A stretch of 63,739 nucleotides of DNA, the filler included, from Hausera hauseri (Eukaryota): the NCBI GenBank assembly GCA_046269625.1. It is 10 parts of 10 records of this genome, joined end to end, with 100 filler letters (N's around TTAATTAATTAA, not from the genome) between each part and the next. Parts side by side here need not be neighbours in the genome. Positions count along the whole stretch, not along the records: positions 39,095 to 45,323 come from JBJURY010122429.1; 9 more parts are not named here. One strand, written 5' to 3'. How positions within the stretch are numbered: position 1 is the stretch's first letter; each line of letters begins with the position of its first letter. The notes under the pieces were generated by a model. That model did no database searches. It saw only the letters and a program-made list of their open reading frames with translations, and was not told the origin of the DNA. Below, one piece after another: positions 2,761 through 63,400 of the stretch. A program made the translations under genes and the position numbers.

Positions 2761-3099
2761 TTGGCGATAACACTTTTAGTACTAATTTCTCCATTAGATA
2801 ATAAACTTTTTATTTCCGCATGAAACTTTTTTCTTTGATCCTCCTTTATTATTTACAGTCTTGCTTTCTTTCTCAGATGTACTTCACTTAAGTTATTGGT
2901 TTTCTCTCTTAATGCAACTTCCCTTATTTTTTGTTTTACCACCTCCCAACGGGACTCTGCATCTTGTTCAATGTTAATCGTGCCATCCTAGCCCTGTTGC
3001 TCTCCCTTTGGTGTATCAGTTTCGAAAGTCATCAATGTGAACGCATCATTTCTCCTCTCCTCATCTTTCGGTTTCGTTAGTTCTCTGGGTTGAACCGGC

Positions 3100-3620
3100 C
3101 ATTGGTGTTCTGTCTTTCTTATAAATTCTGGACCGTTCCACCACTCTATTTTTTCTCGTAGCTCCTATATATCTAGTCCTCTAGAAAGATAGTCCGCTGG
3201 GTTGTGTTCCAATTTTACATATTTCCATTGATTACCGGTCGTTTCTTCTTGTATAAAACCCACTCTGTTAGCAACGAACGTTTTGTAATACTTACTGCAG
3301 CCTTTGATCCAAGACAGTATATTCATGCTATCTGTCCAGTACTGTACGTCTTCCTTCTCATTGCACAGGATCTTCCTCACCTTTCTCCCCAGCTTGACTC
3401 CTACACAGGCTGCCATCAATTCCAGTCTTGGTTTGGCGACACACTTTACTGGCGTTACCTTACCTTTCAAGCATATTATCGCTACTTTAATTTCTCCTTC
3501 CACTATCGATCTTAAATAAGCGACTGCCCCATAATCCTACCTTGAAGCGTAGCAAAAAATGTGTATCACAGTGCCGTCGCCTTCTTCAAAGTATAGATAT
3601 CTTGGTACCTTTATTGTACT
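3100..3620 (-). pseudogene. pol: BEL/Pao RNase H
   Basis: YGAVAYLR, PRLELMAA, WTDS, FVANRVGFIQ, WKYV...NPADYLSRG. Confidence 0.9.
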
Positions 3621-3979
3621 CAAACTATCCATGCCTTTTGCCCATTTCTTAATTTTCTTACTTCATGATCTCTTCATCCCAGTCCACACCCACCATCCAC
3701 AGTTGTTGCAATAACATTTTACCCAACAATGTGTAACAACTGAGGAAACCCAGTGGATCGAACACTTTTGCTAACGTGCTTAATAGTGTTCTCTTTGTTA
3801 CCTCCGTTTCTTGTTTATTACGGTCTTCAAAGTCGAATATATCGTCTTCAATTTTCTATTTCATCCCCAACGTCTTGGTAACAGTATCAGTTTTTTCCGA
3901 TATATTAAATCCTTTGCTCGACTCATAACAGGTACTATGTTCATTAACTCACCAGAATTTTATACCCACTTGTGTGGTT

Positions 3980-4996
3980 TCATTCCAGCTTTCTTCCACT
4001 TAGTTCACCGTATAACGAAACATCTTCTTTCTCTGTACTCACTGAATCGATACAGTCATCCATGTACGTAGAATACTCTATCGTCTCTACAGCTCTGGGA
4101 AATTGTTCTTTGAATTTTTCGGCGTTGTGCCTTGATACTAATTGTGCCAGAAAAGTAGAGGAGTTCAACCCAAATACCAGTCCATTGAACTCGTGTGTTT
4201 TGAGTTTCCCATCCTTATACCACAAAAACCTCAGATATTTGTTGTCCTCTGGTTTTATTTTGATCTGTAGGAACATTTCTTGTATATAACATACTACCAC
4301 CCGTGGTCTTTTTCTCATCCTTAATATGATATCCACAATATTCAACTGCAACTTCGGGCCGGGATCCAGGAAATCGTTCAGACACGTCCCTCGATATTTC
4401 GAAGCAGCATCGAAAACTATCCGACATTTCGTAGTGTCCCTTTTGACCTTCATTATGGGGAAGTGTGGTAACAACCAGGCCGTCTCTTGTCCTTTCTGTT
4501 CCTCTATTTCTCGAATATATCCTTCTTTAGTATGCGTTTCTATCACATTTTCATAAGCTGCCTTTGCCGTTTTATTTTTATCCAGCTTTTCCGTTAATGT
4601 TTTCAACCGTTTTTTTGCTATCCATTCATTATTTTCCAATTTTCGTTGTTTTCTTTCGTTCCACGGCAATGGCACACAGTATCTATTTTCCTCGTAAGTC
4701 GTTTCATCTAGTATACTCTTCACTGTTTTATCGTCTCGTTTGGACCTCTCAGGCTCATTCACATCCATATTAAATTCTATCTCCCATAATCTGTTCAAGT
4801 CGTTTTGAATTTTTTCTGTCCTAGTCCAAAAGGTCCTCACAAAATTACTATTTATCACTTTCCTTTCCTTTTTTACTTGTCCTACACAGGTCCAACCTAG
4901 CGGTGTTAATCGTGCCACCGGCGCTCTCCTTTTACCATATACCTCTTTGATCGACTTGTGCAATTCCATAAGATTAGTCCCGATGATTCCATCCAC
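3980..4996 (-). pseudogene. pol: BEL/Pao reverse transcriptase
   Basis: YCVPLPW, LPHFP, RIVFDAAS, LNDFLDPGP, EMFLQI, LRFLW, FGLNSS, YMDD. Confidence 0.95.
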
Positions 4997-5044
4997 TTCC
5001 GACCTAGGTGATTTTCTGGGAAACTTAAAATCCTTTAGGTGTGG

Positions 5045-5497
5045 TCATTTCTGTTTTTCTGTAAACCAATCTACTGCCCTCATTTGCCACTTTGTGTATC
5101 TCATAGCTAGCGCTTCGAATTTAACTTTCATTGACCGTTCCATATTTAATAACACCATATTTACCCTATCGATGGACATCTTAGTCTGCTTCCCTCTGAC
5201 AACTGTTATCGTCAACTTTTCCGTCTTCTTACCGACACCCAATTCCTCACATAGTCTTGAATCGACGAAGCTCTCGGTACTAGCATCGTCCAACAACATT
5301 ATTGCTCTTTTCATCCTATCCCCATTCTTCAACCGCACTTCTACCGTTTTTAGATCTATCCTCTCTTCCTGTTCGCTCGCTTCTGGAAGGCCTTGGGTCA
5401 CATAAGCTCTAACACCCTTTTGTTTATTTTGTACCTCCTTCCCTTCTTTTTCTTTCGACATCCTTGACGTAGATTCTTCTGTTGTTGCACCCACCAT
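5045..5497 (-). pseudogene. pol: BEL/Pao aspartic protease region
   Basis: AIMLLDDASTESFV active-site motif, followed downstream by the DGIIG flap motif. Confidence 0.8.
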
Positions 5498-5581
5498 TTT
5501 TTCACTTGAAATTTTAGTTTTTCGTTCTGATTTTTCCTTATTTTTGCCCTCCTTATCTGACTTCTTATTACCAGTTTTTTC

Positions 5582-5727
5582 ATGTATAAATTTACAATTA
5601 TTCCCATACTTACATTCCCCTTTTCATAATACCCACACAACCTCCTTTGATCGTCTGTACTAGGTAGGTGTGAATATTTACAATTCTCGCCGAATTTGCA
5701 TCGACCGTTCTTATCAAAACTCCAGCA
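5582..5727 (-). other. Tandem CCCH zinc fingers at the Gag C-terminus
   Basis: CWSFDKNGRCKFGENCKYSH is C-x8-C-x5-C-x3-H. Across a 1-nt frameshift near 5615, CGYYEKG(E)CKYGNNCKFIH is C-x7-C-x5-C-x3-H, and the shifted frame joins ORF 5045..5497. Confidence 0.88.
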
Positions 5728-5782
5728 TCTTTGTGACCGATCCTCACGTGGGATGTTAGAACGATTAGATTGCATCTCTTCT

Positions 5783-7234
5783 TTAATCTTTTAATCTTGC
5801 TTTAAACTTTGTGTTTTCATATTCTCGTGATCCTTTTGTAAAATACGTTCTTTTACTTTCTACCAATGAATATCGACCACCTTGACCTGTATTGAACGTC
5901 TCTATCCCTCTCACTCTCTCTATAGTATTACTTATGACTATCGCTTCCTTTTCGATCCAATTCTTCAGTTCCAGAACTGTCCTGTCTGACTTTTTATCTA
6001 TCACATGCCTTTCCCTAAGAAGTGCTATCGATTCTGCAAGCTTTTCCACGAGGCTCTGGTACAACAGACCCCCAGTAAGTTCTTTTGCTCTTCCTAGACT
6101 CCTCAATCTCACGATTATTCCTTCCAGTAACGCTACAAATTCGTCTAATCCTTTTATATCATCCTCCTCTACTGCCTGAAATCTTATTACCTCGGTCATG
6201 AACGCTGCATAGCAGCATTGTTCGCCCCCATAATAGGAATCCAATTTCGCCAGAGATGCCTTGTACCCCTATTTTGATAAATCGAAATTTTCGACTAGCC
6301 TTTTCGGCTCTTTATACAAGAATTGGTTCTGCTGTAGTCGTTTGTATATTTCCGACATTGTAGTTTTGTGGATACAAGTGTCAAAGGTCTTCTTCCATTT
6401 GTCGTACTCTGTAATGACCCCTCCAAATTTCGGTAACTCTAATTTTTGTAACTTCGGCAATATTGTTTTTTCTCTTTTTTCCTTTTCGGACTTCCCATTG
6501 ACTATCATCATCTTGTTTTCTCTCGAACGTCTCTCATAGATGACCGCGTTGATTTTTTTATTTTGATCACCTAACTATTCCATGTCATTCTCCAGTAGCA
6601 TAAGGTTCTCTTTCTTCCTCAATTTTCTTGCTGCAGTAGTTAATACACACAGCTCCCCTTGAAGATCGGTATAAGCTTTTTTATATTTCTGGTGATAGAC
6701 TTTGTATTCCTGATCATCCAAGTTTTCATTTATCAACTTTCTCCGAATCGTTGATAAATCATTGATGAATTTACGCCGTTCTGACAGCCTATCCTCCAAC
6801 TCTTCTGCAGTTAACTCACTTCCACCCTTTAGCCACAACTGTAAATGAATAGTCACATCCTTTTGAATATTGTATTCACTAAGTTTTCTACCGTCCTTTA
6901 GTTGTATCCCATTATATACCAACCGTTGTTGGTCTGTGGGGATTCCTTCTCTTTCCTCGATAACCGACTTCAATATTTCTACTTTATCCCACAATTTTAT
7001 AGCCGTTACAATTATTTTTCCTGAAATTGTTTCGAGAAAGACCGTCGAATCCGATCCTTTTGCTCTAACTGCTTCTTCTTGTGCCAAACTCCCGAAGCCG
7101 GGTTATTCTCTTTCTTTCATCCTAACTGACTCTCGCTTTAATTGTGACTTGTCCTCATCGGATTTACTATCATCAGTGAATTCCATTATCTTCCTTGGTT
7201 TTACACTACTAATTCGCGGTTTTTGTCCGGCCAT
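5783..7234 (-). pseudogene. gag: BEL/Pao Gag with N-terminal ubiquitin domain; interrupted by premature stops
   Basis: ATG at 7234 (MAGQKPR...) is in frame with 6575..7087 across a TAA at 7103-7105. The capsid-type region reads LPKLQKLELPKFGG...W...F...IH, then LDSYYGG...LVEKL. Confidence 0.85.
6821..7048 (-). other. Ubiquitin domain (76 aa, ends LKGG) inside Gag
   Basis: [11 protein letters not shown]...[43 protein letters not shown] aligns without gaps to ubiquitin ([43 protein letters not shown]). Confidence 0.95.
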
Positions 7235-18999: not shown

Positions 19000-19797
19000 T
19001 CAACAGTCTAAGTTTACAATGTTCCTGATATCATTTTCTATTCGAAATGTCAAAGTCTGGTCTGCATCTGGTCTCTTTTTTGACGGTATTCGTTCAATTG
19101 GAATTAGGACTGGTTTTTGATACTTCATTAGGAGGATATATATTAATTTTCCACTTTTGTGATCATCCTTCAATTTTGATATGACCGATTTGTTTTTCAA
19201 TTGTACAGGTAGCTTGACGTTGAATTCTGCGCCTAATCTTATGGGTAATCGGTATAGCTTTTCATAATCATCGAAGAGGTAAAACATCTTTATATCACTT
19301 GAACGTTCAAATATAAAACCAATCACTTCGTTATTGTAGGTGTCCCATGATTGTAAACTGATTTTGGGTATAACTTGATCTATATAGAGAGGGGGTTCAA
19401 CGGAATCTATCACTACGGGAAAACTAAAGTTTCTCGTGTATATAAGTATTCCGTAAGGGAACGTGAATGTTTCAACCGTAGTCAATCCTTTTATAATCCT
19501 TTCGGTGAATTTTATAAAATCGGTTGTCTCTGTTTGAATTGCACAAGATACTTTTTGAATATCTTTATTATTCCAATCATGATTTGATGCATTTTCATCT
19601 TCTTCACTCGCAAGCTGATCTTCCATCTGTAAATTCTTATCTTCATCGGCAATGATATCTGAGATTTCTGATATAGAGGGAGTTTTCAATTCTTCCATTA
19701 TTTCATCTACAATAGCCTCTGTGTTCTGATTAGTTCCTCCGGTTGAATGATAGATCCATGCAAAATCCGACAGGTATTTTTCTCTATTGTAAAACAA
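19000..19797 (-). CDS. Unknown accessory ORF (265 aa), possibly a frameshifted continuation of 19707..20855
   Basis: Long open frame inside the element, with an acidic linker followed by a globular-looking region. Confidence 0.6.
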   Translation of the reverse strand: MFYNREKYLSDFAWIYHSTGGTNQNTEAIVDEIMEELKTPSISEISDIIADEDKNLQMEDQLASEEDENASNHDWNNKDIQKVSCAIQTETTDFIKFTERIIKGLTTVETFTFPYGILIYTRNFSFPVVIDSVEPPLYIDQVIPKISLQSWDTYNNEVIGFIFERSSDIKMFYLFDDYEKLYRLPIRLGAEFNVKLPVQLKNKSVISKLKDDHKSGKLIYILLMKYQKPVLIPIERIPSKKRPDADQTLTFRIENDIRNIVNLDC

Positions 19798-20855
19798 CTC
19801 CCCGGATCAACTACATTATTAAATGTTTCCTGCGGTGTCCATGATACCTGGAAAGGGTTTGTTACCAACTGAAAAACGTCCATAGTGAGTTTCAATTTGC
19901 CGTGGTCGTCTTGCGCATAACCTTGACCATTTTTAAATCCAGGTAATTTCAAAAGAGTACTGATATTTACTAACGTTAGTTGTTGGAACGTGCGTCCAGT
20001 AATTTCTTCGTGTTTCAGTAAGTCTACCACTCCAGCAAGATAATTGAAAGGAATATCGAAAACCTCTATCATCCTGTGGGTTTCTAATCCGATTACCACC
20101 GTTCCAAGCAACCAGTTAATCATTTCTTTTGTGACATCAAATATGTCTTGTATATGATAAGCGATATATTCTGGTAATATGCCATGCCGTATTGAGTTGA
20201 CGTTATGTAACTTCTTCCTGTTAGCTACAATTGCTTTGTATAATATAGCACCTCTTTTGTTGGCAATAATGACGTGAATGGGTAGAGGGCTATTATCTTG
20301 CATATAACCTGTGGATACAGTTAATATTCTGATGGTATTGCTCTGACAAGTATTTATAAAATTGACCTTGGTTTGTATTATTGTCTCCGGCGGGTTATGT
20401 GCTAAGACCATAGGTCTTGGCAAATACAAATGTTTTTCCGGCAGAAGACATTCGATTATCATAATTATTGGAAGGTACAATGGTCTGACTTGGATCAAAT
20501 CAATACTCATAGGGGTATTGATAAAATAAGTTTCTTCTTCGCAAATCGAGTTTGTGATTGCATCAGAATATCGACTTTCATTTCTTGTTTTTAAACAAAT
20601 CATTCCTCTGGCCACGTGTATTACTATCCCATCAATAGCATCTGTTTTAGCCATATATTGTTTTAATTCAAATTGCTGAGATTCATGAATTGTATATATA
20701 CCAAAATTCCTATTCATGGTTATTTCGTGCTTTAATTGGTTGGGGATACGAACCACATTTAAAGCTATGAAACACTCAGTTTTCACCATTTGTCTTCTGA
20801 TGTTGTTATAAAAGGTTTTTGACAAGGTTTTATTAAAACTACTTCTTGAAACCAT
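19707..20855 (-). CDS. Accessory ORF with a C-terminal REX4/ISG20-like (DEDDh fold) domain lacking catalytic acids
   Basis: HVIIANKRGAILYKAIV...HGI...FDVTKEMINWLLGTVVIGL...LTLVNIS..L follows the REX4 pattern VSIVN..G.VLYD..V...SGI...F..V..EV..LL.G.ILVGH. Domain at about 19863-20333. Confidence 0.6.
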   Translation of the reverse strand: MVSRSSFNKTLSKTFYNNIRRQMVKTECFIALNVVRIPNQLKHEITMNRNFGIYTIHESQQFELKQYMAKTDAIDGIVIHVARGMICLKTRNESRYSDAITNSICEEETYFINTPMSIDLIQVRPLYLPIIMIIECLLPEKHLYLPRPMVLAHNPPETIIQTKVNFINTCQSNTIRILTVSTGYMQDNSPLPIHVIIANKRGAILYKAIVANRKKLHNVNSIRHGILPEYIAYHIQDIFDVTKEMINWLLGTVVIGLETHRMIEVFDIPFNYLAGVVDLLKHEEITGRTFQQLTLVNISTLLKLPGFKNGQGYAQDDHGKLKLTMDVFQLVTNPFQVSWTPQETFNNVVDPGSCFTIEKNTCRILHGSIIQPEELIRTQRLL

Positions 20856-22173
20856 AATTCTGAACTAACGTTTGAAAATCTAATTGATCTGCGTGGTATT
20901 GAGGATGTAGTTTTGAATACAATAAGTTTGATTCTATTTGTGAATCGTTTCTCGTCATTTTTGGGTTTTGGCGTTTCATTTTGAATTTCTGTTGATTGAA
21001 TTGATAGAGGACTGAAAATAAATTAAATTCATTTAAATACTCACCTTTGTAGCTTTGTATACAACATACAACCAATGAGCATGTTAGAAGTTCAACTATT
21101 TGTGGGGACGCATGTAGTGTGTGCGATGATTGCTCGTGTAGATGACTAATTTGCAATCGCCATCTTGAAATTAGTGGGCAGTGACACGTGTTAGTGTCAG
21201 TATGACTGTGTCTGACTATTTTTGGAATAATTAAAGTGCCTATAGCCAACGTAAGCAACAAAGCTATACTTAATACAATGATTAACAAAGCACATATAGT
21301 AATACTTAGCTCAACATTATCAATTTTTGGTCTCATAGTCCGAGATTCGTTTCTACTATCTTTTTTATTATAACTAAATTTAACTACATTATTTATTTTC
21401 TGTAATGTTTTAACATAAATTTCTGAATAGTAGGTACAGTTCTTTACTACTACTAAATATTTAGTATCTGAGCTTAATCCTATGCAATAGGCATATTTTT
21501 GTTTTCTTTCAAAAATAATTCTCTGTTTATGGTGTTGGTTTATACAAGTTATACTAACCCATGCATTCCGAGTATTCGTTTGATGATTCCAAGCGAACTC
21601 TATTCTATCTTGTTTAGGATAAGTTAGTACAAACAAGTTATCCGTAATTTCTATGTCATTATACTTAGCCATCTTTTTATACTCCTTATAGGGTATGTTG
21701 CATATATTTTGTTCGGTCATGAAAGTAGTATCATACACAGAATCATTAATTTTAAATGGTATTAGACATTTAATGCTAGATTTAACTGTCAAATGTAAAT
21801 CCCATCTCTTTTCTTTATTGATCTTAAAAATTAGTGCTAGTAGGGAGAATGGTTGATTTATAACCAATAAAAGACAGGTTAAAATATTGTCTTTATATAG
21901 ATCCGCGAAAGCTAATTTGTCTTTATAAGAAATCACTATTTGTACTATGTTGCTAGTAGGTCTCTTTTTAAATCTTATACAACCTTTTTCAAAGTTTGGT
22001 CCTAACACTTGCATTTCTTTGTTAAATATCTCGTCACCAGATGTATGATTTTGATTCTGTTTTATTAGTTGCACCATTGATTCATAGGGGATGTTAAATT
22101 GACCATAACTCATATGAGTGCATGATAACCAAATAGTAAATACACAAATCATAGTTAGCAGATTGGTGGACAA
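20839..22173 (-). CDS. Type I membrane protein-like extension of Pol: hydrophobic signal-like segment, FN3-like domain, TM helix
   Basis: LLTMICVFTIWLSC, then IEFAW...IGLSSDTKYLVVV...YVKT (FN3 Trp and Tyr-corner pattern, ~21403-21642), then LSITICALLIIVLSIALLLTLAIGTLII (~21223-21309). Same frame as integrase. Confidence 0.7.
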   Translation of the reverse strand: MSTNLLTMICVFTIWLSCTHMSYGQFNIPYESMVQLIKQNQNHTSGDEIFNKEMQVLGPNFEKGCIRFKKRPTSNIVQIVISYKDKLAFADLYKDNILTCLLLVINQPFSLLALIFKINKEKRWDLHLTVKSSIKCLIPFKINDSVYDTTFMTEQNICNIPYKEYKKMAKYNDIEITDNLFVLTYPKQDRIEFAWNHQTNTRNAWVSITCINQHHKQRIIFERKQKYAYCIGLSSDTKYLVVVKNCTYYSEIYVKTLQKINNVVKFSYNKKDSRNESRTMRPKIDNVELSITICALLIIVLSIALLLTLAIGTLIIPKIVRHSHTDTNTCHCPLISRWRLQISHLHEQSSHTLHASPQIVELLTCSLVVCCIQSYKGEYLNEFNLFSVLYQFNQQKFKMKRQNPKMTRNDSQIESNLLYSKLHPQYHADQLDFQTLVQNYGFKK

Positions 22174-22284
22174 TAACTTTGGTGATGTAAACCCGAATTT
22201 TCCAGTATACGATTTTGGAGCCTTTGTTACATTTTATATGGAAACATTCTCTATTTTTCCAGGAGACTTTTCTATGAACAGGGT

Positions 22285-24075
22285 TTATGGTCTTACTTCC
22301 ACAACTTTGTATGGTCCTTTGCCAGTGCGGGTTAATTTTAATGATCTTCCTTTAGCTGTGAGTGGATAATGTATCACGACAAAATCTCCAATTTTATATG
22401 GATTTGACTGAGCCTTTTTATTATAGTACTTGGTGTAGGATTTTTTATAATTATCTCTAACCGCTCGCGCTTGTTCTCCATATTCACTTAACTGTTTTAG
22501 TAATAGTGTATAATTTTTTTCTTGCAGGTTACCCGTAAATGGCAGAACTGTTGGTAGCAGCTTGACATCCAGTAGCAACAACGGAAGTCTTCCAAACATT
22601 AATTCGTATGGTGTTTTATTTGTACTTCTCGTTGGTGTGGTATTCATAGCGAAAGCTACAGTTGGTAATTTATCTGGCCCATTTTTCTGATCTGCAGAGA
22701 CTTGTACGGATAAAATTCCTTGTACAGTTCTATTCGAACGTTCAACTTTACCATTACATTGTGGATGATAAGCTGTAGTTAAAACATGTCTAGTATGTAG
22801 CACCTTTGTGACTTCATTAAACAACTGACTTGTAAAATACGGGCTTTATCTGTTAATATTAATCTAGGTAATCCTAAAACGCATATTAATTTGTTGAACA
22901 ACTCCATGGCTATTGTTTCCGTAGTCATAGCTTTTAATGGGATTAATATAATGTAGCTTGTGTAATAGTCAATAAAACTCAATATATATTTGTAACCTGA
23001 TTCCGAGGTCGGATAAAATCCTGAAATATCCATTTCACATATTTCCATAGGTGCTTTTGGCTCTGGAAGTGTTCCAAGCAGTGGTCTTATACATCTTCCC
23101 CTATCCCTTCGGGTTGCGCAAATCTTACAAGATTTGACCCAATTGATTATGTCTTCTGTCTGATTTGGCCAAAATTATTTGAGTTTAATACGCTTTATGG
23201 TCTTGCCTAACGATGGGTGACCAGCTAGTTGAGAATCATGTTCTTGAAGTAAGACTGATTTTATCAAATAATTAGGTATTACAATTAAGGCTTTATCGTT
23301 GCATATGTATTTCAGTATATTTTTATCTATAATCAATTTGCTTTTGTGGTCTGTCAGCCATTCAGTTAAACGTTTATCAATATTAGGCATTTCTGACGTA
23401 CGTACGTACTGCTTCACTACATAAAGTAAAGGATCGTCATCTTGGACAGTTGCTAATTTGTTTGTATTTAGATTCGAGAATTCTGTCATCATCATAGTAA
23501 ATTCGTGTTCATCTATCTAAGTAAGTGCTGCAGAACTGATCTCAGGATATAGGGTTCGCGATATAGCATCTGCATCGCTGTGAAGCCTTCCTGGTACGTA
23601 TTTAAATTTCGGATTGTAGTTTAATAATTCTAATTTCCACCGTTGGATTCTATTATAAATACGCTTGTTTTTACAATCAAGTTTTTCTAATGCTTGGTGG
23701 TCTGTATAAACTATAACTGGGTAACCATATATATAAAATTCGTAATTTCTTAAGCCTTCTAGAATTGCTGACAGTTCCAATTCAGTAGCTGAATAATTTT
23801 TCTCTTCTTTAGTTAAGGCTCTTCCACCATATGCTACCACATTCAATTCTTTCATTAGGATATTGCTGCGCCAAAATATAGCTTAAACCATTTAAACTCG
23901 CATTCGTCTTTAAAATAAATGGTAATTCAAAATCTGGGTATTGTAGAATCGATGCGGAAACCATTTTCTTTTTCATGTCAAATGCGTTTTGGTGCTTTTC
24001 TTTCGAAATGTATTTCTTATCGTTTCGTAGTAATTCATATAATACACTATTTATTTGGGAGAAGTTTTGTATAAA
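22285..24075 (-). pseudogene. pol: Gypsy pol: RT connection, RNase H, integrase with GPY motif
   Basis: EKNYSATELE, VYTDHQAL, DADAISR, EHDSQLAGH...C..C, LILTD, TTAYHPQCNGKVERSN, TPYELMFGR, GKGPY. Confidence 0.95.
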
Positions 24076-28870: not shown

Positions 28871-29056
28871 ATGACCTGCACAATCTGTTTAAATCATTAT
28901 TCCGTAAATCAGGTGGAGCTGGTCACCTGCAGACATGAATTTTGCCGCTCCTGTCTAAAGGAATGGTTTCTGATATCAAAATCTTGCCCTTTGTGTCGTG
29001 CAAACAATACATTATTTCGAAACGGAGACGAATACTTTACTGTACAAAATTTATAA
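28871..29056 (+). CDS. Small C3HC4 RING finger protein
   Basis: CTIC...CRHEFCRSCLKEW....SCPLCR. Confidence 0.9.
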   Translation: MTCTICLNHYSVNQVELVTCRHEFCRSCLKEWFLISKSCPLCRANNTLFRNGDEYFTVQNL

Positions 29057-29318
29057 ATACATTCTTGTTCGTACAAACCATTTAATTGTGCGGGATGAAA
29101 TAAATAAATATAATTATTACCCACAAGTAGAATAATTGATTAAAACCCATTTCGTTTTAGACGAAATGTAAAAGATCGAATATACGGAATACAGAACGCC
29201 AAGACAATATTTATTTCAAGAATTATCCCAATTTAACATAATAAGATATCTATGATATTATAGAAATAGGCAGAATGGACCAGCTGCGATTATTAGAAGA
29301 ACGATAGATTATACTAAG

Positions 29319-30340
29319 ATGAAAGTGGTCGACGAATCAACGAGAAATACCCAGACGAGGAAAATATCATTTTTGAGCTATCCGAATTCACCCGTTTCAG
29401 GAGGGTTAGCACACTTGTATGCAAACACAGGATTATTTCGAACCACATCTGGACGAATAAAATGTCTATACTGCCAGGAAGAGTTCCTATACTAGTCTAC
29501 AAACGATCATCCAAAAGGACTCATAAGAAATTATATCCCAAATGTCCTTATTTGTTAAACATTAATGTTAACAACGTACCACAGACAGATAGTTTTTCTG
29601 AACAGCCTGATTTAGATAAGGATGCTGATTATGACACGACAGTACCAGTAAGTGTGGTTTACTTAACAGATAATACAATGGAAGAGAATTTAAGCCTAAT
29701 TTCAAATATAGTACAAAAGAGAAAGTCAACCTTCAAAGGAAACGAGAATATCGAACATTTAGCCAGACAAGGACTAATATTAATCTTGAAAGACGAAGTG
29801 CAATATGTAAAGTGCATCATATATTCAAAGGAAACTTACTGGAAAATATTGATCAACGATGCCCAAACATACTGCATACTACTAAATACAATTACTCCAT
29901 ATATAAAACCCCCGAGAATTACAGTAAAAGACGATGCCGAATACAATTCGATATGGGAAATCTTTATGAAAGTTACCAAGACAGTCCAGTAGCCGTGTCA
30001 ATAATAACCCGACACCCTACAAAAAGCGAAAATATACTACAATATATAAAATATCAAACAGAGGGTCAACTAGACTGGTCTCTAAGTGTGTTTGAACTGC
30101 TACAGAATTTAAATTTTATTCCCCCAGAAGAAGAGCAAGAAGCAGAACAAAATATTCTTAATAAACTTTACTTACGTGATTTAGAGTGTACAATTTGCTA
30201 CGCAAACTCAGTACAAGTTATCTTTTTCCTTGTGGTCATTTAGAAACATGTGAGAAATGCTCAAATAGAACAGAGAATTTTCCAGTTTGCAGAAGTCATA
30301 TAAAAAGAAGAATAACATGCTTCAAATTTCCAGAAATGAA
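29319..30340 (+). pseudogene. Inhibitor-of-apoptosis (IAP)-like gene: BIR, degenerate BIR, C-terminal RING; intronless, frameshifted
   Basis: BIR1 is RKISFLSYP...YANTGLF...IKCLYC....Y*STNDHP/THKKLYPKCPY...NNVP, with the conserved W read as TAG at 29493. BIR2-like is RKSTFKG...LARQGL...VKC. RING is CTICYANSVQVIF/PCGHLETCEKC....PVCRSHI. Confidence 0.88.
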
Positions 30341-30838
30341 CAGTGGGAGCATCTCGATTTTGAACGAATTTTTACCAATAAGTCAGTTTGTATTCGATTT
30401 AAACAAATAAATGTTTATTAGTTTATGTACATAAATTTATTAAATAACCCTCTATTGTAATATATTGAACACATTTGTTTATGGAATTAGTGGATACTAG
30501 TAGAATGACTTTAACCAACCTCGACAAGTGGAGAATCCAGTTACTAACTATAAAGAATCAACTTCCTAAAATGGTTTACGAATGGTATAAACTATATAAT
30601 GACCTCTACTCATTAGGGTAATGGAACTAGGGTACTCCAAATACTTGGCGATGGTTGCTATTAAAATCGATGAAAAAGCCGGATATGAAACACTACCATC
30701 AGTGATTACCAACATATATCAAATACAATTAATGGATGATGAATACTACCAGAGAGTTCAACACTTGACTTCGACATTAAAAGGAAAAGAGGAAGAAGTG
30801 GAAGAAAATATACTGATATGAGCCGTGCAATTTGGACT

Positions 30839-30990
30839 TGTTTGATTTGTATAAAAAATCAGTCAAATACGATACACCTACCATGCGGACACATGATTCA
30901 TTGTAAAGCTTGTGTAACTAAACATTCAATGTTATAGAAATGTACTGTGTGAATTACCTATAGAAGAAATCTGTACCATATATACGTACT
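30839..30990 (+). pseudogene. Third RING finger (IAP/MDM2-type spacing), disrupted
   Basis: CLICIKNQSNTIHLPCGHMIHCKAC....*KCTV/ELPI. Not in the ORF track because of a stop and a frameshift. Confidence 0.8.
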
Positions 30991-31024
30991 AAAATGTATA
31001 GAAACTTAGCCTCCTTTAATAACA

Positions 31025-33500
31025 GTGGAACAGGGACATCAATATAATACTCGATCCCGCGGACGATTGGCACAAAATCAGTTGACTGCAATTAATGAAG
31101 CTGATTCAAGCGAAGAAAACACAAGCCCCACTAATAGTTCAAATACTTTAAGTACAGCATCAGCCCCAGAATCATTACTTGACATTGATCCATTACAATT
31201 GTCTCCAGTTCCAGTACAATACCATTGGATACGAGGAGTCAGTGGACGACAAAGGCCACCTCGAGATCAATACCACAATGCACCTAATTCGCGTCAGTTA
31301 GCACAGAGAATTATTAATCAAGAATTAGAATGTCGAACACGTTACAAAGTACATTAAGTAAATGTACATAATTTAAAAATAAGACAGAATCAGGCGGAAT
31401 ATACCATTCGACAGCTACTTAGAGATATACAAGATATAGCCCGACAAATAGGAGACTGTACAGTAGAAATAAGTATCATAAATAAGAGTATGAGACTAGA
31501 TAATGTCGAAAAAAGAAATATACGAATAGAAGAAAAAGTAAATGGTAACGGCACAAGTCTAAATGAACTCGAGGAAAGAACGGATCAAATAATACAAAAT
31601 ATAGGTGCCAATACTAGACAAATACATAATTTATAACAGCAAACTATGGACAACATAGCAGCAATACATAGAAATATGAAACAGATCGAAAATAACGAAA
31701 GAAATGCGAATCAATGGTTAAATGAAATGCAAAATCAAGTAGCAATTATAGTTTGCGAACAAGAACAGATACAAGTAGAAAATAACCTTATCAGAAATCA
31801 AATTGATGTTTTGGCTAGAAACATTAGCCAACTAAACGAATGCCTTAAACACGTACAGGCGAAAGAATTAATAGCTTGACTGAATGAACGAATAGAAGAT
31901 GAGCAATCACCAGAATTTTCAGCGAAACTAAGTTCTATACCTTGTGAAACCTTTGATACCGATAGTGACAACATGGAGCCGCTAAGGAATAATCAGGATC
32001 CCTTGGCTCAGCATGGTGAGCGTAATTGTGGTCTGCAGAGGGATATAAATAACAATTCCGGTTACGACCCACCAAACATTAACGAAAGAAGGAGAAAAGA
32101 GAAGTACCAAATGTTCCCTCGCCTTCAATCATACGAAGGACGAGTATCGGACTTAGAGGATTTTTTAGACGAATACGATTCGCTAGCAACAGCCATGCAT
32201 TGGGTGATGCAAGGAAAATATCTCTTTTACCAGTGCATGTGAATAATTATCTGAGAATGGCAATAACACGCCTACCTAGACGTGTTGACGAAAATTGGAC
32301 GCAACATCGAGAAAGAATTTTACAAAATCAACAAGGTGATGTACAAGAAAACCGATATCTAAAATTTCAAAACTGTAAACAGAAACCGAATGAAGAAGTC
32401 TTAACATACATCAACAGATTTAAAAGCGCAATGAATAGATACTTTGGTTTGAATGAAGAAGCCCTTGGGGATATGATCATGAAGCAATTTGTACTTGGAC
32501 TTTTACCAACTTTACAAAAAGGAGTCAAATTTCATACAGCAAATAATTTTAATGAATTGATAGAATATATCCAACGAATAAAAACTGGAATAAACGAAAC
32601 ACATGTCTGGACTAATCAGAGGCAAATCTCAGCAGTAGCCACAACATTATTGTTAGTAAGACCAGATGTAGCAAATAGTAGTAATTCACCTAGGAGTGAT
32701 CTGTCGAGAAGCCAAAGCCCTAATCGGCAAGACAGCAATACACCACAGAGAGGCAACACTCTGGAAAGCGGAGTTATAACTAATCATCCAGAGACTACAA
32801 CAATAATCAAAGAGATACCTCATATCAAAGAAGTAGAAGATACTATGATGATCGACAACGGAATAATACAAAATACAATAGATCACGAGTTTACTCGAGG
32901 GCCAGAAAGGACAATAGAAACCGATTTCCTAGTAGAGAAAGGTACAGTAATGATAAAAATCCCAATCGTTATGATAATATAAATAATCAGGGGAACCAAT
33001 ATCATAGACGAGATGACAGCCTAACGCGATATCCGACTAATCGGTCGGAAGGATTAAGAACCAACTATTCCAACGACAGGCGAAGTAAAAGCCATGAGAG
33101 GTTTAGAAGAGATGATAGCCGAGATCGATATGGTATCTTCAATAGAAATGTTAGCAGAGAAAGAGATAACAGAAGAAGTGATAGCATAGACAGATATAAT
33201 TCTGGAAATGATAATAGTAATAGGTATAACGATTCGAGATCTGAAAATCTTGACAGAAGGCATGACTATACCCTACCTGGACGAGAATTAGACAGATATA
33301 ATAAAAATCCCAGTCCATATCCTGAAAGAGATCGAAAACAAACCCCATCAACCAGACCAAGCAATAATAATGACAGATATGCCCGACCACCAGATTATAG
33401 TTCCAGACGAAACGAGTCATCATCAAACAGAAATATTTTCTCATCCAGATACGATAGAAATACGACATCCGAATATCCTAAGCACCAAAATGAAAGCAAA
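31025..33500 (+). pseudogene. gag: Ty3/Gypsy Gag: coiled-coil N-terminus, capsid, long R/S/D/N-rich tail without zinc knuckle
   Basis: YNTRS near the start, then heptad-rich 31330-31880. Capsid FPRLQSYEG...FLDEY...A.AMHW/DARKI...FQNCKQKPNEEVLTYINRF...FVLGL lies at ~32111-32590. Confidence 0.85.
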
Positions 33501-35098
33501 TTGGACTCAACAATACCATCTTATAACATTTCCACAAAAGAAAGAGGAAACTCTCTAGATAATAGGAAAAGTAATAATGACGAAAGGAGTGTTTTACCCC
33601 GCCGCTCAGTAACTTTCAACGAACAAAGTAAATCAGCTTTTACGGGACTATTAATGGCCAAACCAATAATAGAACACCAACAAATCACATTCAAACCATC
33701 ATCCAACATGTCTATTTTAGAAAAACCCGTCATAACGAGAAACTATTTGAATCAAGCGGAACGAAAGGTACCAAATTTACAAAATAATACGCTTCCGTAT
33801 ATGTTATGGCCAGAAAGAAAGGAAATCAAAAATTTACTTTTACATCTGTAGCAGTATAAAAAATATCGTAGACGAGCAGGAACCAGAAAACAGTCAAATA
33901 AGAATGGCGTGCGTCGAAGGTGATCAGATAGTTAAGTTAGAAAATGTACATCTCGAAAAAAAAAATGTGCTGAAAGCCTCAGACAGCTACTCTGTGGAAA
34001 ACTTATTGTTGGAATTGAATCACCATGCTTGTTCAAGCAAATACAGCAAAAAGAAACAGATATCTTCGGTACGTTTAGTGTAGATCAGAATTATAATTTA
34101 CCAAATGATTATCGAGAAAGAGAAAATACATTACTCCAGCGATTAACTAATCTACGACAAGAATACAAAATTAAACTTAACCGTCAGGGACCCCAATATT
34201 ATATTTTTCCAAACAGACCATTGTATAAGGACGAGAGACATCCCCAACGAGAAATAACATGTAACACCATCATGATTCCGGAAGTAAAATAACAGCATCT
34301 GGACATAGATACAGTTCGAAATTGGGATAAGATATTTGCTAACAAGAAGTCTAACCAAATAGAGTTTGAAGATATTGCCAAACAAGGATTGATTTGTGTG
34401 GAAGGTGTCGATAAAGCTTACTTAAAGAATACCGATATCCAGATTAAAAAGAATGATTCACCATGTGAAATTAATACCAATAAAGGAGAAGCCTGACTAC
34501 AAGTCAGTAATAAAACAGTAATCATTTCCAAAGGGACTATGATACTTCCCAATTATTCATATGAAGAAGATTGTCAAATCCAACCACTACATAATTGCCC
34601 GTTATACTTAATTCAATTGCTTAAGGAAACACCCATATTATCTGTGGATGAACCTGTAACGCAGGATANNNNNNNNNNNNNNNNNNNNNNNNNNNNNNNN
34701 NNNNNNNNNNNNTTAATTAATTAANNNNNNNNNNNNNNNNNNNNNNNNNNNNNNNNNNNNNNNNNNNNTTGTCCATCTACAAACTGACCATTAAAGACAA
34801 CAATATCGTATAAACAACATGGCCCCAACTCCATGCTTATGTAATCCACAAAGGCAATGTATCGGGAAAGTTTCTTCACGACTGTCCCGTGCCTGAAACA
34901 CAGCGTGCCTCCATTTGGTCATCTGGTTGTTTCTATTATCAACAGCTGTACACTGACTATGATAATGGCGAAATGCGTGAGATATTCCTAGACCATAACA
35001 TCATTGTTGCCTAGGTACGAAAGCACAAAATGAAGACACACACAATTTTGATAACAAATCCATAATAGCTAGGTGAACACTAGTACGTTTTCTTAGCC

Positions 35099-39094: not shown

Positions 39095-40660
39095 TTACTA
39101 ATTCCGATGAATTTGGAGAGACAGCATTGTAAGCAAGCTAGAGAAACAGGAAGAATAAAATTGGATGGTATGGAAGTGAAAATGCAGCAAGGGAAAATAA
39201 TCAGAGTGTATAAAGTGGCAGCAGGAAAACTAGATATGCATACTCGACATTGTTGCCGTGCGGAATACGATACCGGAAAGGGACTAGAGTCAAACATCGT
39301 TGTAGTGGATTTTTACAAAACCGAAATGCGTATACAGAAAGTGATGTTTCATAGCGTTACTAAACTTTACACCGAGAACCACAAGTGCCACATTCAGGAT
39401 GGCACATGCCCGTTTCAAAGTTCCGTAGTAATTTGGGAACCCCCAGCCAAGACCGATTGCAACTTTATCAAAATTAAAGAACTTAAGTTCAACGAGACGA
39501 CAGGAAAACGATATATAACTAGCACGGAAACTAACTCTAAAACACGAGAAGATGTGGCCAAACAGTCCACACCTACTATACTAATTTCTGATACTCATGG
39601 ATTAAAATTTGTAAAGAAAGCTATGCTCAACAGATGCGACATCGTAATGTATGCCACCAACTATAAAGCATTTTTCGTAACCGAGACAGAAATAAACGCC
39701 AGAACGTTGAAACTCGAGACTCAGGACATTCGGATCGAAGACTATTTGAAGAACAGAGACGACTATTTCTACTGTAAAGGACAAGTTGGAATAGCCAAAT
39801 TATACCACAAAATGATAACAAATGACTGTAAATTCACTTGGAAATCATGATAACTAAGCTGGTCCTGATATACGCCAATCCCGAGTTGGCATCACCAGTA
39901 ATTCCGATTAAAGAGGGTGTTTTTGGACGAGTAACCGGAGAGGTCTTATTGATCTATGAAAGTGAAAAGAAAGACGTACCGATTAATGTGGAGGAGAAGA
40001 GGTGTATACAAGAACTTCCAGTGATGTATCAGGACGTACCGAGATTAGTCACACTAATTACCAGAGTGTTGTTGGCAAACGCCACTCAACCGACAATTTT
40101 GAGAGACTGCAAAACTAGCTTAGGAGAGCCGATGTTCAGATGTAGCAAGACCGACTGGTAAGTCTACCGAACGGCGGTATTATCTCACCACCTACCAAGC
40201 TGACAGGAAAAAACCTGATAAAAGGAATAACCGATGATAAATTTCAAGATACAGCCGCAAAGGGTATTTACCGACCCAAATAAGTAGAGGCGTTTATACA
40301 ATTTCTCGCTTTTCCGCGCCAACGTACATATGAATTAAACAGAGCGATGCACACAATATTGGAGGATTCGCGGTACCAGGCGAAATGGGAGTATTTACTT
40401 GGTGTTGGCTATTACAAGAAGGTAACTACAGAAATATTATACAAAATTTGGGGAAGATTCCTGATATTTGGGCAAGCCGCGTCAGGATTTTTAGCGATAT
40501 ACTTCTTAATTCAACTAGTAAAAGCTATAATTCAAGCAATCATAAATGGATACGAGATATTCACCTTGACAGGATTTTCGTGTAAAATTTTAACGGTTAT
40601 TATTACACCCTTCGGTAAATTCTTAAAGGCTTATGAAGAAAGTAAATGGAAACAGATGTG
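39095..40660 (+). pseudogene. env: Envelope-like class III fusion glycoprotein (chuvirus G / gB-like family), 5'-truncated, frameshifted
   Basis: Ordered motifs: CHIQDGTC....VIW....DC; CDIVMYATNY; EGVFGRVTGEV; RCIQELPV; ITRVL...DC....F....W; FQD.AAKGIY....L.FP; W..F..FGQAASG plus TM plus INGY. Confidence 0.8.
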
Positions 40661-41304
40661 GAGCGGCATGTTGGTTACCATAATCAAAAACGTAGAAAAC
40701 ACATATTCGATTATAGGCAAAAATTCATAGTCAGTAAGACACAAAGAAATAATTCGGATAATAACGAGCCTAAGGGAGGAGACGGCATCTCCAGGCTAAA
40801 AAGGCATAGAAATTACTCCGTTATGAAACTACCGTTACCAATACTGCTGCCAACGGCATCTATATATGAGGATTGCGAGAAAAAATCTGAGTTCGTGTCA
40901 GACAGACGTTTATCGGAAGCCTTTCAATTTAGAGGACCCTTACGAAGGAACAAAACGCTATGGGATATTGCGTATGATCCACGAAACGGAAAGGACGTCC
41001 GCCCCACCTCGTCGGTCAACAGTCGACGACCACGGCATAATTTACTCACCTAGAATACCTAAGCCAAACAAAATGCAATCGATATTTACTCGAAGCTGTG
41101 AGGCACAAAATTCCCGAAACCAAGATGTTCAGCCACCGGTTAGAAACCAAAGAGTAGAAAACACAAATGGTCCAAATAACGAACTATATCCAATTGGAGA
41201 GCTAAGACAATTAATCGATCAGCCAGTTGGAACCACTAAAGTTACCATCAACAGCTACAAAGTGTCTACGATACGACAACCCAAGATAGCACCAAGTATT
41301 ACGG

Positions 41305-41660
41305 TAGAGTAATCGAAGGCAGGCCCTTCGCAAAGATTCAATTGGAAGATTTGGAGGTTTATTCACTAATAGACACAGGATACGAAATATCACTGATAAA
41401 ATATGATTCAATACCACAATTCTTACGGAAACAATTATATCCACCTCCTACGACAGACCCAGGAAGCATTGGAGCTTTCGGACAATCCTAGAAGAGTAAA
41501 TTCCGATGGAAACCAGAAATTTACATAATGGGATAATCTTTTCGTCATGAATTCTCAGTAATGGAGCAATTAACGGATGATGTAGTGCTAGGATGCGATC
41601 TATTGAAACAACCACCTAATATAGCAATCGATTTCAATGCAGGCAAGTTGATAGAACTTG
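41305..41660 (+). pseudogene. pol: Retropepsin-type aspartic protease
   Basis: RPFAKIQLEDLEVYSLIDTGYEISLI (DTG at 41372-41380) and DVVLGCDLL. Frameshifted, so absent from the ORF track. Confidence 0.88.
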
Positions 41661-41719
41661 GCCCAAAAAAGGTGTTAAAACCATTAAAGACAAAAAATTT
41701 GGAGAAGTATGGATCCCCG

Positions 41720-44700
41720 TAGACGAGAACATACCGCCCAGAACTGAAATATTAATATACGCTCACATACGTCAGGATGACGATAAACCAGTATATTTCG
41801 AACCAAAAGAATCGCTCAATCCAAACCTCGTGCTCAACAACGTTTTGACAAGAGTATCAACGGGCCGCGTGCCAATCAGAATAGCGAATAACGCAACAAC
41901 TCCGATCAAACTGTATGCCAATACCACTTTGGGACACATGTATAGAGTATCATCCATTACCATCGAAGAGAAACCGTATAAGGGTGCCGAATTTCCACCC
42001 CACGTTGAAACTAAATTCTCACCGGAATTATACTGCCGATTCTACGAATTACTTTGTCGTTATAGTTCGATTATCGCGAAAGATGAAGAAGATATTGGCC
42101 GAGCCAAAACCTTAAGGCTTACCATCCCGCTTAAGAAGAAGTCTGGCTCCAACGACCAAATAGACTTAAAGGATCAAAAGATGCCGAAATGGTACCCTCC
42201 TCCACACTCGCTAAGGCCAGAGATAACTAAGGAAGTTGAACGAATGTTAAAGGCTGACATAATGAGACCAAGCTATAGATTTTGGTATTTACCTATCCTC
42301 ATAGTTAAGAAGAAAGGCACCGCGAAGCACCGATTCTGTATCGATTATCGAGTACTAAACACACTTATGATGAAGGACTCCTTCCCATTGCCATCGGTAA
42401 AGGAAGCTTTGGACAGACTTTCTGGAGCTAAATGGCTCACCACTCTTGACTTGCAATCCGGATATTGGCAAGTGGAGATAGAGGAGGAAGATCGTTACAA
42501 AACGGCATTTAAGACACACGATGGCATATACGAATTTAATGTCATGCCTTTTGGAATCACTACCGGATTAGCCATTTTTACGCGCATGATAAATAAGATG
42601 GTAATAAGATTGGAACACGCATTTGCCTACTTGGACGATGTTATTATTGCGTCGAAAACGAAAGAAGATCACCTAAAGGACATTGAATGTACACTCATGA
42701 GAATGGAGCAGACTGGATTGAAACTGAATCCCAAGAAATGCAAATGGGCTCAAAATGCGGTATTGTACCTTGAACATATAGTTGCAGAAGGAGGATCGAA
42801 GCCGAATAAATCATTATTGAGTAAGATATCGGATTGTATGGAACCTCAAAATCAAAAGGAATTAAGACACTGGTTGGGGCTATGTGGGTATTATGCAACC
42901 TACATATCCGATAACGCAAAGATAAACGCACCTTTACATCACATACTCAAAAAGAGATTAAATAGAAATGGACCGACATAGAACAAAAAGCTTTTGACAA
43001 AATGAAAAAGATTCTGAGTAGTGAACCTGTTCTACGGTAACCCGACTTTAACCTACCGTTCATAATTAAAACAGACTCCAGTAAGGAAGGTATCGGATAT
43101 GAACTGGCCCAGAAACGAGAAGACGAGGAGCAAGAGCACTTGATTGCATATAGAGGACGTTCTCTAAAAAAAGCTTAGAAGAACTATTCCGTAACAGAGT
43201 TGGAAACATTGGCAGTAAAAGAAGCACTGAGACATTTTAACATGTACGTCTATGGACAAAATATTATAATCGTTACTGATCATAAAGCAGTTATGACTTT
43301 GAAAGATAGAGCAAATAATCCAACATGCAGATTAAACAGATGGATAGAAGAAATTTCACGTTATAATATTGAATTCCAATACAAGTCCGGAAATAAACAT
43401 ATCGACTCCGATGCATTATCGAGACTTAAAACTAAAACAAGCGCAGTTCCTGTAATGAGGAAAGCACACCTCGAAGACTTAGTAGAAGGACAACGGACTC
43501 TCGTGCTGGATAAATCATTAAGGATTTCTTTCAAACAAAAGAAGGACGGAGTTATACAACAAATTATCGAGTTCGTTGACACCAACGTAACACCCAAGGG
43601 TCATCAGTTACGGAAACAACTACGACAATATGGTCATAAATACTGCGTCGTTGGAGATTTAAACCACAAAAACGTGTTAAACTACGAACGAAAAGGACAA
43701 AAATTGGTAGTCATACCAAAAGGATTGCGTACGGAAGTACTCATAACCGAACATGATTCATACTTAGCCGGACACATGTCGTGGAAAAAGACATTAAAAA
43801 GGATATTAAATAAGTACTATTGGCCGAGTATTTATATCGACGTAAGAAATTGGATGAACGCTTGCGAAGTATGCGCGACCAAACAAAGAAAAGTAAAAAA
43901 AGCTACATTGCCAAACTTAAACCTATCCACGTGCCAGATAGACCAATGTAAGCAATGTCTATGGATATTGTATGACCACTGCCTACAACCCACAAGAATA
44001 ACAAATACATTTTGACCTGCGTAGACCGATTGACTCACTTCGTCGAACTTGTAGCGTTATTAGACCAAAAGGCCGAGACCTTGGCAGAAGCCGTAGTTCG
44101 AAAAATCATTTGCAAATACGGGCCACCCGAACAAATTTTGACAGACCGAAGAAGAAACTTTGCGAGCGAATTATTTAACAAAATTAACAAGATTTTTAAA
44201 ATTGAACGACTAACTACCACAGCTTATCATCCCCAATGTAACGGAATGGTCGAACGAATGAACGCGACAGTTATACGAATCTTATCAACAGTAGTCGCAA
44301 AAGACCAGAAAGATTGGGATGAGTTCTTAGAAGGTATACAGTTTGCCATTAATACGACTTCACATCCTGCGACAGGATTCACTCCGTTTTTCATGATGTA
44401 TGGCAGAGAAGCTGTCCTGCCTACCGATTTAGGATTAATTCCCTACGCAACGAAAATGGAAGATCTAGAGCAGAATTTTGTTAAAGTATTACAAACGAGA
44501 TTGCATAAGTGATGGAAAATAGCCAAGGAATTATCTAAAGAATACCAGGAACAATTCAAGAAGCAATACGATAAGAAGGCTAAACCGCACGATCTGGAAC
44601 CCGGAAACTGGGTTTACGTGCACTACCTAGTGGCAAAGAAAACACATCTCTTAAACTCACACGGACAGGTAGAGGACCTTACGAAGTTACCAAAGTAACA

Positions 44701-45285: not shown

Positions 45286-45423
45286 CGCACTGACCCATTT
45301 AAAAGATTCTTAGACTATAACATNNNNNNNNNNNNNNNNNNNNNNNNNNNNNNNNNNNNNNNNNNNNTTAATTAATTAANNNNNNNNNNNNNNNNNNNNN
45401 NNNNNNNNNNNNNNNNNNNNNNN

Positions 45424-45790
45424 CTATGTGACCATGAATGTGAAGGAAATTGCAGCATATGCACAACATCTTGCGATCATCACGTATGCCAAGAAATCAT
45501 CCAACTGAAACTACCATGCACCCATACCATAAACATTATTTGCAGTGAGATGCATCAAAAATACATCTGCCAGAATAAGTGTCACAAAACCCTCTCCTGT
45601 TGACACAAATGCACTTACGAAGGCAGTGAATGTTTCGGTGGACGTCTCCATCGACCATGTACACAAAAATGTTTGAAATCCTTATTTTATTATCATCCTT
45701 GTCGACGACTATGCCATTCCGGAGCCTGCAGAGAATGTCAGCAGATTTGCTGGATGAGCGCTATCGCCAATTGCTGCAACTATCGCATCC
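45424..45790 (+). pseudogene. NF-X1-type zinc-finger array fragment (ZNFX1-like), with internal stop
   Basis: LCDHECEGNCSIC...LPCTH...CQNKCHKTLSC*HKC....ECFGGRLHRPCTQKC.....HPCRRLC...CRECQQIC. Confidence 0.7.
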
Positions 45791-46539
45791 CCGTTCCTCA
45801 AGCGTATTTGACACTGCGATTCAATGACAAACAATTTAACAAAGACGGAAATTCTTTCAATTCTTCGACAACTTCAAACAACTGGAGACCTCTCGGCATT
45901 TCCATTCATTGGATCTGTCATCGCCGACAAATTAGCTATCCGATCATTGGACATCTACAATGCAACTACAGCCATATCGGTGCATATAAGCTATTCTAAT
46001 TACACTCCTTGTATAAATTCCGCCAATGACTTAATCATATTAGTTAATATGTCACCAAGTAAAAAAACAATACAGGTGGGGAGGTCGGTCACCCTGCAAT
46101 TTGGGGCTCGCCGCGACGGGGGTGATGTCCCGGCCGTTAACCCTTTGCCGGTTGGTCAGACGGCGCCTATTGCGTCGGCCCGCAACACGCCACCAGGCAC
46201 ACTACGCCCCTCTCTATTTTCCTTTTCCTAAATAATAAACATACATACACACTAATTACATCACGTTTACATATTGCAACCCTTCTTACCTTCATTTCTT
46301 TCTTACTCAACTCTTCCGATTTCTATCTTACGCATAACGGTTCTATAATACCCTCACCGGAACCCTATCATCTTTCTCAACCCACACTTGTCTCCACATA
46401 CATTTCCGTACCCGTGGTGGCATGAACTCTTTGCAAACCATAGACACCACGAATAAAACTACCACGAAACCAAAATCTGTCATATTGCTTCAAAAACCCA
46501 TTCCTATATCTGCTAGCAACCTCCCATCCATTACCTCTT

Positions 46540-62558: not shown

Positions 62559-63400
62559 TTAGTGGAGAGAATAAATAAAAATCGGATAGTGATAGGACTG
62601 GTGAGTATGTGGGAAGGGGTGAGAAATTGTTGTCAAACCAACTACATTATCATGCAAAAAGTAAATATGTTGATTGTTACCAATTAATCTTCTTCTATTT
62701 ATTTGAATGTTCAAACGAAGTTGTTTTAATTGTTCACAATAACCATCTGCATTTGAAGTTAGATTGCGTGCAAAAACTAGCATAGTATTGACACCTTTTG
62801 AATCCCCAAAAATGCTTAAAAGGTGTTTTCTGGATGTCAACTGTTGCGACACACAAGCAGGAGTGGAATCGCCTTCACCGCACCAACTTCGGTTGTGATA
62901 AGATTTTCTAGTGTCCCAGTATATCCAGGTTTCATTAACAGTAATTAATCTGAAAAGGAAACAGTTGTCTTCAACCATATTCAACAGCTCATCACATATT
63001 CGTTCTCTGGCAGCTTTGTTTTCATTAGTAAGGTTGTATAATTTGTACTTTTATATGAATGTATGTTAATGACATAAATTGTACCCGCCTACAGTGGTAA
63101 CGACAAATTGCAATACTGTTCAGTATTTGAAATACGTCGTAAACTAATTTGCCGCTTACGGACGTCTAATCTCCCCAATGTTCTTTTATCACGTTTGGGC
63201 TGTTTTGATAAAACGCTTGATCTCTTCTTGCAACCAAATAGACACGATGCTTGTGATTTTCATCCCTTTTGTATGCTACTACTCAATTCATATTCATCGT
63301 CCTTACTTTTGATGGAGTTGAAATTCTTGGATCACTCAACGCCTTGACGTAAGATTGGTTTGGCTATTATAACAATACACATGAAGTTAAATGTCAAATC
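62559..63400 (-). mobile_element. Mariner-type transposase remnant
   Basis: LFRLITVNETWIY, K.LLSIF.DSKGV, YCEQL..L, FLHDN. Truncated after the second catalytic Asp. Confidence 0.85.

Follow-up and report, generated by a model that had tools for sequence, protein, structure and literature searches.

The window analysed here is a 63.7-kb stretch of DNA made up of ten contigs and nine joining linkers (N runs with TTAATTAATTAA). The contig at 39095-45323 carries a dead, decayed copy, a relic, of a retrotransposon whose envelope gene stands ahead of its polymerase. We regard it with considerable confidence as a degraded member of a many-copy Ty3/Gypsy family with a chuvirus/gB-type env directly before PR-RT-RH-IN, likely a flatworm gag-env-pol errantivirus. 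GAG-ENV-POL Ty3/gypsy elements with a gB-type env have been described from Nematoda, Bryozoa and Platyhelminthes (Chary and Hayashi, eLife 2026, PMC13524379), and in the planarian Burro elements an in-frame env sits between gag and pol (Arkhipova and Yushenova 2019, PMC6431247). The env-before-pol layout is therefore already published, not the new gene order that the sequence-only reading had taken it for. The contig copy alone is one more, broken, example, and its element is likely among the published flatworm gag-env-pol errantiviruses.

The contig opens inside env, right behind an assembly linker, and its last position is 45323. Because it begins within env and is cut on both sides, the beginning of env, gag and the two LTRs are unreadable. 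The features between these limits are collected in Table 1. Stops and frame changes occur in env, linker and pol, so the copy falls outside the uninterrupted-ORF rule of PMC13524379.

Table 1. Features of the contig at 39095-45323, with window coordinates and the basis of each assignment.
Feature	Position	Strand	Basis or remark
Assembly linker, N run with TTAATTAATTAA	38995..39094	.	Separates contigs; further one at 45324-45423
Env ectodomain, N-terminal part; 5' cut by contig start, frame change at end	39095..39847	+	33 relatives (best E 4e-22), pLDDT 88.5, chu-like matches, gB ranks 1-4
Env ectodomain, middle part; second frame change at end	39832..40158	+	PF24664 positions 347-424, E 2e-4; collinear with relatives, 30-37%
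Env C-terminal part; internal stop 40281, predicted anchor and weaker hydrophobic segment	40146..40727	+	PF24664 positions 527-601, E 2.2e-15; hydropathy scan
Polar linker, likely cytoplasmic tail connecting env with protease	40731..41310	+	No Pfam match, no protease-profile match; X1 contigs in all bins
Aspartic protease, DTG at 41372, internal stops	41324..41611	+	RVP E 0.012; profile built on proteases of 18 relatives: 35.5 bits, E 3e-12
Spacer kept in relatives, then RT (42304-42771, YLDD at 42628)	41620..42978	+	RVT_1 E 1.6e-33; 35-38% to five relatives
RNase H, stop-broken	42969..43364	+	RT_RNaseH E 1.2e-14; tblastn
Integrase: zinc-binding 43713-43886, core from 43991, GPY at 44668; internal frame changes	43713..44700	+	Integrase_H2C2 E 1e-17, rve E 4e-10; motifs
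Post-integrase extension: RYxLRS, signal-like hydrophobic segment 44839-44895 (hydropathy scan), then ~130 unassigned residues	44788..45282	+	

The env occupies about 540 codons on the contig (39098-40727), of which the ectodomain accounts for about 455. The gene is spread over three frames, with changes near 39,840 and 40,155 and one internal stop at 40281. A hydropathy scan places the C-terminal hydrophobic segments noted from the sequence at 40464-40520 (the predicted anchor) and at 40557-40613 (a weaker stretch). The PF24664 profile (Monjiviricetes fusion glycoprotein; chu-like) matches the C-terminal piece of env and, below the cut-off, the middle piece, with the E values given in Table 1; the N-terminal piece alone gave no match to this profile.

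The largest unbroken env piece, of 251 aa, was used for phmmer, folding and structure searches. Against 1.84 billion proteins, phmmer returned 33 relatives at E<=0.001, with 23-36% identity. Folded with 25 relatives, the piece gave a model of pLDDT 88.5 and pTM 0.57, in which long strands are accompanied by a long helix at the C-terminus. This fold found 13 matches in BFVD at E<=0.001 (best 2e-8), 12 of which are named as chu-, qin- or xinmo-like virus glycoproteins and one of which is unnamed; the sequence identity in these fold matches to viral glycoproteins is only 10-15%. In a wide structural search, herpes gB took ranks 1-4 at middling Z-scores (6.1, 5.4, 5.0 and 4.9), with superpositions of rmsd ~11 over ~200 residues, and was followed by rabies G and the Bourbon virus glycoprotein at Z 3.5. 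In the PDB, Foldseek returned nothing at E<=0.001, with gB chains in most of the top ranks. Taken together, the PF24664 profile, the BFVD matches and the structural rank order support the assignment of env to class III, chuvirus/gB-type, in line with the class III glycoprotein proposed from the sequence. F-type envelopes are class I fusogens, whereas the env of this contig belongs to class III. The premise that errantivirus env is solely F-like is outdated. Errantiviruses with gB-type env are published (PMC13524379), and the same paper connects this env type with the chuvirus-like glycoprotein carried by BEL/Pao elements in mosquitoes. All seven P0015 cysteines in the part aligned with the N-terminal env piece are common to both. 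Word-based protein searches with the N-terminal and C-terminal env pieces found nothing among longer proteins, the tool being insensitive at such distance.

Between the end of env and the DTG motif at 41372 lie ~640 nt, which is within the limit of PMC13524379 (env less than 2 kb upstream of pol). The linker is polar, with 53% P/S/T/Q/N/R/E, and its complexity, 4.07 bits, is close to the 4.16-4.17 bits of env and RT. Of the low-complexity coding linker of ~650 nt described earlier, the length stands, but the low complexity does not. Neither linker ORF matched a Pfam family at E<=1, the protease profile found no additional protease there, and a tblastn search with 35 relatives against the linker and the contig tail gave nothing at E 0.01. 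No repeats of at least 40 nt were reported within the contig. The same-strand succession of env, linker and DTG protease is borne out, with neither a capsid nor an LTR found between them. A third-position test of the linker differences gave 13 of 28, short of significance (p 0.10); a subset picked post hoc gave 13 of 23 (p 0.019). The distance from anchor to protease is 302 codons in the contig copy and 140-383 in the seven relatives with a correctly placed motif. The pol that follows has the profile order RVP, RVT_1, RT_RNaseH, Integrase_H2C2, rve of Ty3/Gypsy elements, with YLDD and GPY motifs present, in agreement with the Gypsy-type pol of the sequence-only reading.

The adjacency of env and protease is no accident, and the distant relatives are the stronger evidence for this. 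Domains were scanned in the 15 env relatives of at least 447 aa among the 33, the remaining 18 (103-426 aa) being left out. PF24664 is present in 15 of the 15. A protease follows env in the same ORF in eight; four reach RT and three integrase. A zinc knuckle lies ahead of env in two of these long relatives, and RT precedes env in none of the 15. The cluster member P0034 (4,844 aa, with ankyrin repeats) provides a fourth ORF that runs all the way from env to integrase. By tblastn, the relatives are collinear with the contig. In the RT region, the nearest env relatives are 35-38% identical to the contig, compared with 26% for the plain Gypsy element on the next contig; this closer RT, together with the same order in these relatives, fits shared descent. 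Several relatives have at least two protease domains right after env, whereas the contig copy has one. P0002, P0006, P0007 and P0034 contain two to five aspartic-protease motifs per polyprotein, some of them past integrase. NCBI lists P0015 as a protein of a bacterial MAG, probably through a binning error.

Other copies were found in X1, a public run containing the stretch and possibly the source of the window itself; X1 therefore shows other copies, not another organism. At least 80% identity was reached by 19,625 placed contigs and at least 99% by 790, covering 30 of 30 bins, a depth that does not equal copy number; many related copies in the host are evident from these contigs. On the 1-kb env-protease junction, 2,427 X1 contigs were placed. 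The eight junction pieces listed have 20-41 differences each and span 40656-40987 and 41003-41500, with a gap at 40988-41002. Diverged pieces cover env tail, linker and protease and cross both linker borders. One contig connects 40956 to 41366, the shorter side of the join having 91 letters, and no X1 contig spans anchor through protease singly. The stops at 40281 and ~41490 are missing from most X1 contigs, and thus represent decay of the contig copy. The adjacency in other copies that the earlier reading had called for is seen both in these pieces and in the fused relatives.

We propose that the active family would produce one long polyprotein, with gag upstream of env. Entry of env into the ER lumen would depend on a hydrophobic segment downstream of gag, which signal peptidase would cleave. 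P0002, P0010 and P0015 each have a hydrophobic segment ahead of the motif at which env starts, and a single clear anchor past env. The env anchor would bring the chain back to the cytosol, so that linker and pol would be cytosolic, and the element's own protease may cleave the polar linker and release pol for packaging. A second signal-like segment past integrase would start a further membrane protein. By analogy with class III fusogens, env trimers could fuse the particle with the target cell.

A single env-pol polyprotein, which the sequence-only reading had considered possible, is probable in view of the eight of 15 long relatives fused in one ORF. The same element could instead express env and pol from separate frames, through a frameshift, splicing or a separate start, with no single polyprotein; this appears improbable to us. 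It would accord with the frame change near 41,300 and the stops at 40,728-40,830 in the contig copy, with P0003 and P0014, which stop within ~60 residues of the env anchor without a protease, and with P0019, which stops ~240 residues past the anchor, likewise without a protease. However, the contig copy is decayed everywhere, so its frame breaks say little, there is no slippery heptamer at 40,880-41,517, and the in-frame fusion of the relatives argues against separate frames.

The origin of the arrangement can be explained in two further ways. If this Gypsy lineage had recently and independently captured a chuvirus glycoprotein, that would account for best fold matches that are chu-like virus glycoproteins and for the low env identity (23-36%) to the nearest relatives, and GAG-ENV-POL elements are reported to be non-monophyletic (PMC13524379). 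On the other hand, the nearest env relatives of sufficient length to be judged are retroelement polyproteins in the same order, pol and the post-integrase motif are common to these relatives, and the 10-15% identity to viral glycoproteins speaks against such a capture. The independent env capture by a Gypsy lineage that had been inferred is thus unsupported, since the relatives share env, order and a closer pol (35-38%), and we consider it very unlikely. A chance joining of env with an unrelated pol, whether through a chuvirus fossil, a deletion, a nested insertion or a misassembly, is largely refuted, and we hold it to be still less likely than capture. A short draft contig and the lack of a singly spanning X1 contig would be compatible with chance joining, as would the insect chuvirus glycoprotein fossils found beside Gypsy fragments (PMC10084718). 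Conversely, the 2,427 X1 junction contigs, the diverged pieces over both linker borders and the contig joining 40956-41366 contradict it, as does an order common to distant relatives. A decayed copy of a many-copy gag-env-pol element thus remains the preferred reading.

The host of the element is likely a flatworm. By eye, its env is similar to the Schmidtea rows in supplement 2 of PMC13524379. According to supplement 6 of that paper, the five free-living flatworms among 55 flatworm genomes have 5-253 env-pol env matches; the other 50 genomes are parasitic, three of them having one env-pol env match and none an annotated element. In view of these counts, a family with many copies suggests a free-living flatworm as host; a parasitic host would represent a new host group, and the host range would then be new too. 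On the contig at 50285-59651, 51881-52870 (+) contains an exon with an Ig domain and a membrane anchor, of higher GC. We take this exon to resemble a fish semaphorin; it suggests that the assembly is mixed and contains fish DNA.

The region past integrase may encode a second membrane protein. Each of the four full-length relatives has, at its end, a signal-like segment followed by an ectodomain, and three of the four show an FN3-like motif. The RYxLR motif after integrase is common to the contig copy, P0002, P0015 and P0034. A second anchor is clear in P0015 and P0034 and, by eye, weaker in P0002. P0002, P0015 and P0034 share C-x-x-L-x-x-x-T-x-Y with an ORF at 20842-22233 (-) of a sibling element; P0010 has no such motif and was left out of the leave-one-out test. 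In that test, 0 of 496, 0 of 496, 0 of 490 and 3 of 500 shuffles scored as high for P0002, P0015, P0034 and the sibling, respectively, with borders set round the motif by eye, which favours passing. The sibling ORF had an Atlas FN3 score of 0.91 with 152 shared features, where 4-10 of 100 shuffled proteins reach 0.9. A four-sequence profile of the post-integrase domain matched Dscam at E 0.045, the Pfam fn3 profile found no match in the domain, and the fold model reached pLDDT 42. The tail of P0002 as a query found itself alone. The contig tail was rejected as a member of the relatives' motif domain, since 419 of 493 shuffles scored as high and there was no Atlas match. The idea that this tail is the env N-terminus absent from the contig start, in a tandem or circular arrangement, was rejected as well, since the env starts of the relatives do not match it.

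We suggest tentatively, as a possibility we rate well below even, that env-before-pol elements carry, within a single polyprotein, both a gB-type fusogen ahead of pol and an FN3-like type I membrane protein past integrase, which would serve as a separate attachment or trigger protein, by analogy with herpesviruses. If true, this would be a retrotransposon with two-protein entry like that of herpesviruses, whose gB needs partners. PMC13524379 leaves it open by what means errantiviruses with a gB-type env gain entry to cells when they lack the partner glycoproteins on which herpes gB depends; the predicted post-integrase membrane protein is a candidate for that missing partner and can be checked in intact elements. 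The word 'fibronectin' is absent from the main texts of PMC13524379 and PMC6431247, and a literature search for fibronectin type III or FN3 in retrotransposons found no relevant paper.

The sibling Gypsy element lies at 20842-23882 (-) on the contig at 16301-24075, and its integrase is 49% identical over 83 aa to that of the contig element. After it come a predicted type I membrane protein, complete and with the FN3-like motif, and then two further ORFs, at 19710-20864 and 19003-19806, without a Pfam match; its upstream part and any env lie off the contig. Elsewhere in the window, the contig at 28627-34668 has three RING-like motifs (28877, 30228 and 30881) upstream of a Gypsy gag, in 28877-34668 (+). 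This gag (Retrotrans_gag E 1.9e-6) has a long Arg/Asp/Ser-rich tract, and a BIR-like stretch was seen by eye near 34300. This contig may represent the 5' half of an element resembling Burro, with no link to the contig at 39095-45323. A decayed BEL/Pao-like element, recognized by eye, occupies 2100-7102 (-) on the contig at 1-11523; its gag region includes a ubiquitin domain (E 2.7e-18). At 45424-46000 (+), a fragment of an NF-X1-type zinc-finger host gene (E 0.012) adjoins, on the upstream side, a plain Gypsy gag-pol. Finally, a decayed mariner-like transposase was recognized by eye at 62559-63050 (-).

Several known systems resemble the element in part. The mosquito Anakin elements (PMC10084718) similarly carry a chuvirus-type glycoprotein within an LTR retrotransposon. 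However, their pol is BEL/Pao, in contrast to the Gypsy-type RNase H and integrase profiles of the contig, and BEL/Pao membership was not supported: the env relatives gave E 0.015 or no match against the BEL element on the contig at 1-11523. For insects, PMC10084718 describes no clear Gypsy capture of a chuvirus glycoprotein, and is superseded on this point by PMC13524379. Troyka elements (PMC12440569) were considered, and nothing in that description links them to the contig element. The nematode non-canonical endogenous retroviruses (Sacco et al. 2022, as described in PMC13524379) are metaviruses with env and pol flipped and an RNA-virus-type glycoprotein, as here; they differ in their nematode hosts.

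Burro and GYPSM1, giant Gypsy elements, share the in-frame env between gag and pol, with matches to mononegavirus glycoproteins (PMC6431247). The relative P0034 (4,844 aa, ankyrin) is close in size and content to the Burro polyprotein (4,873 aa). By contrast with Burro (~4,900 aa; ankyrin, BIR, BCL2, MATH), the contig element is compact, with one protease and a 302-codon gap between anchor and protease, and the part present on the contig, from which the 5' half is missing, gave no Pfam match to ankyrin, BIR, BCL2 or MATH domains. The GAG-ENV-POL errantiviruses of PMC13524379 have in common with the contig element a Ty3/Gypsy pol, a gB/chuvirus-type env before pol and many copies. They are intact, whereas the contig copy is broken, and the likeness here is by layout and env type. 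With the Schmidtea rows of supplement 2 (Platyhelminthes_C1a), the contig env shares, by eye, the motifs TP before the central strands and ATNY.
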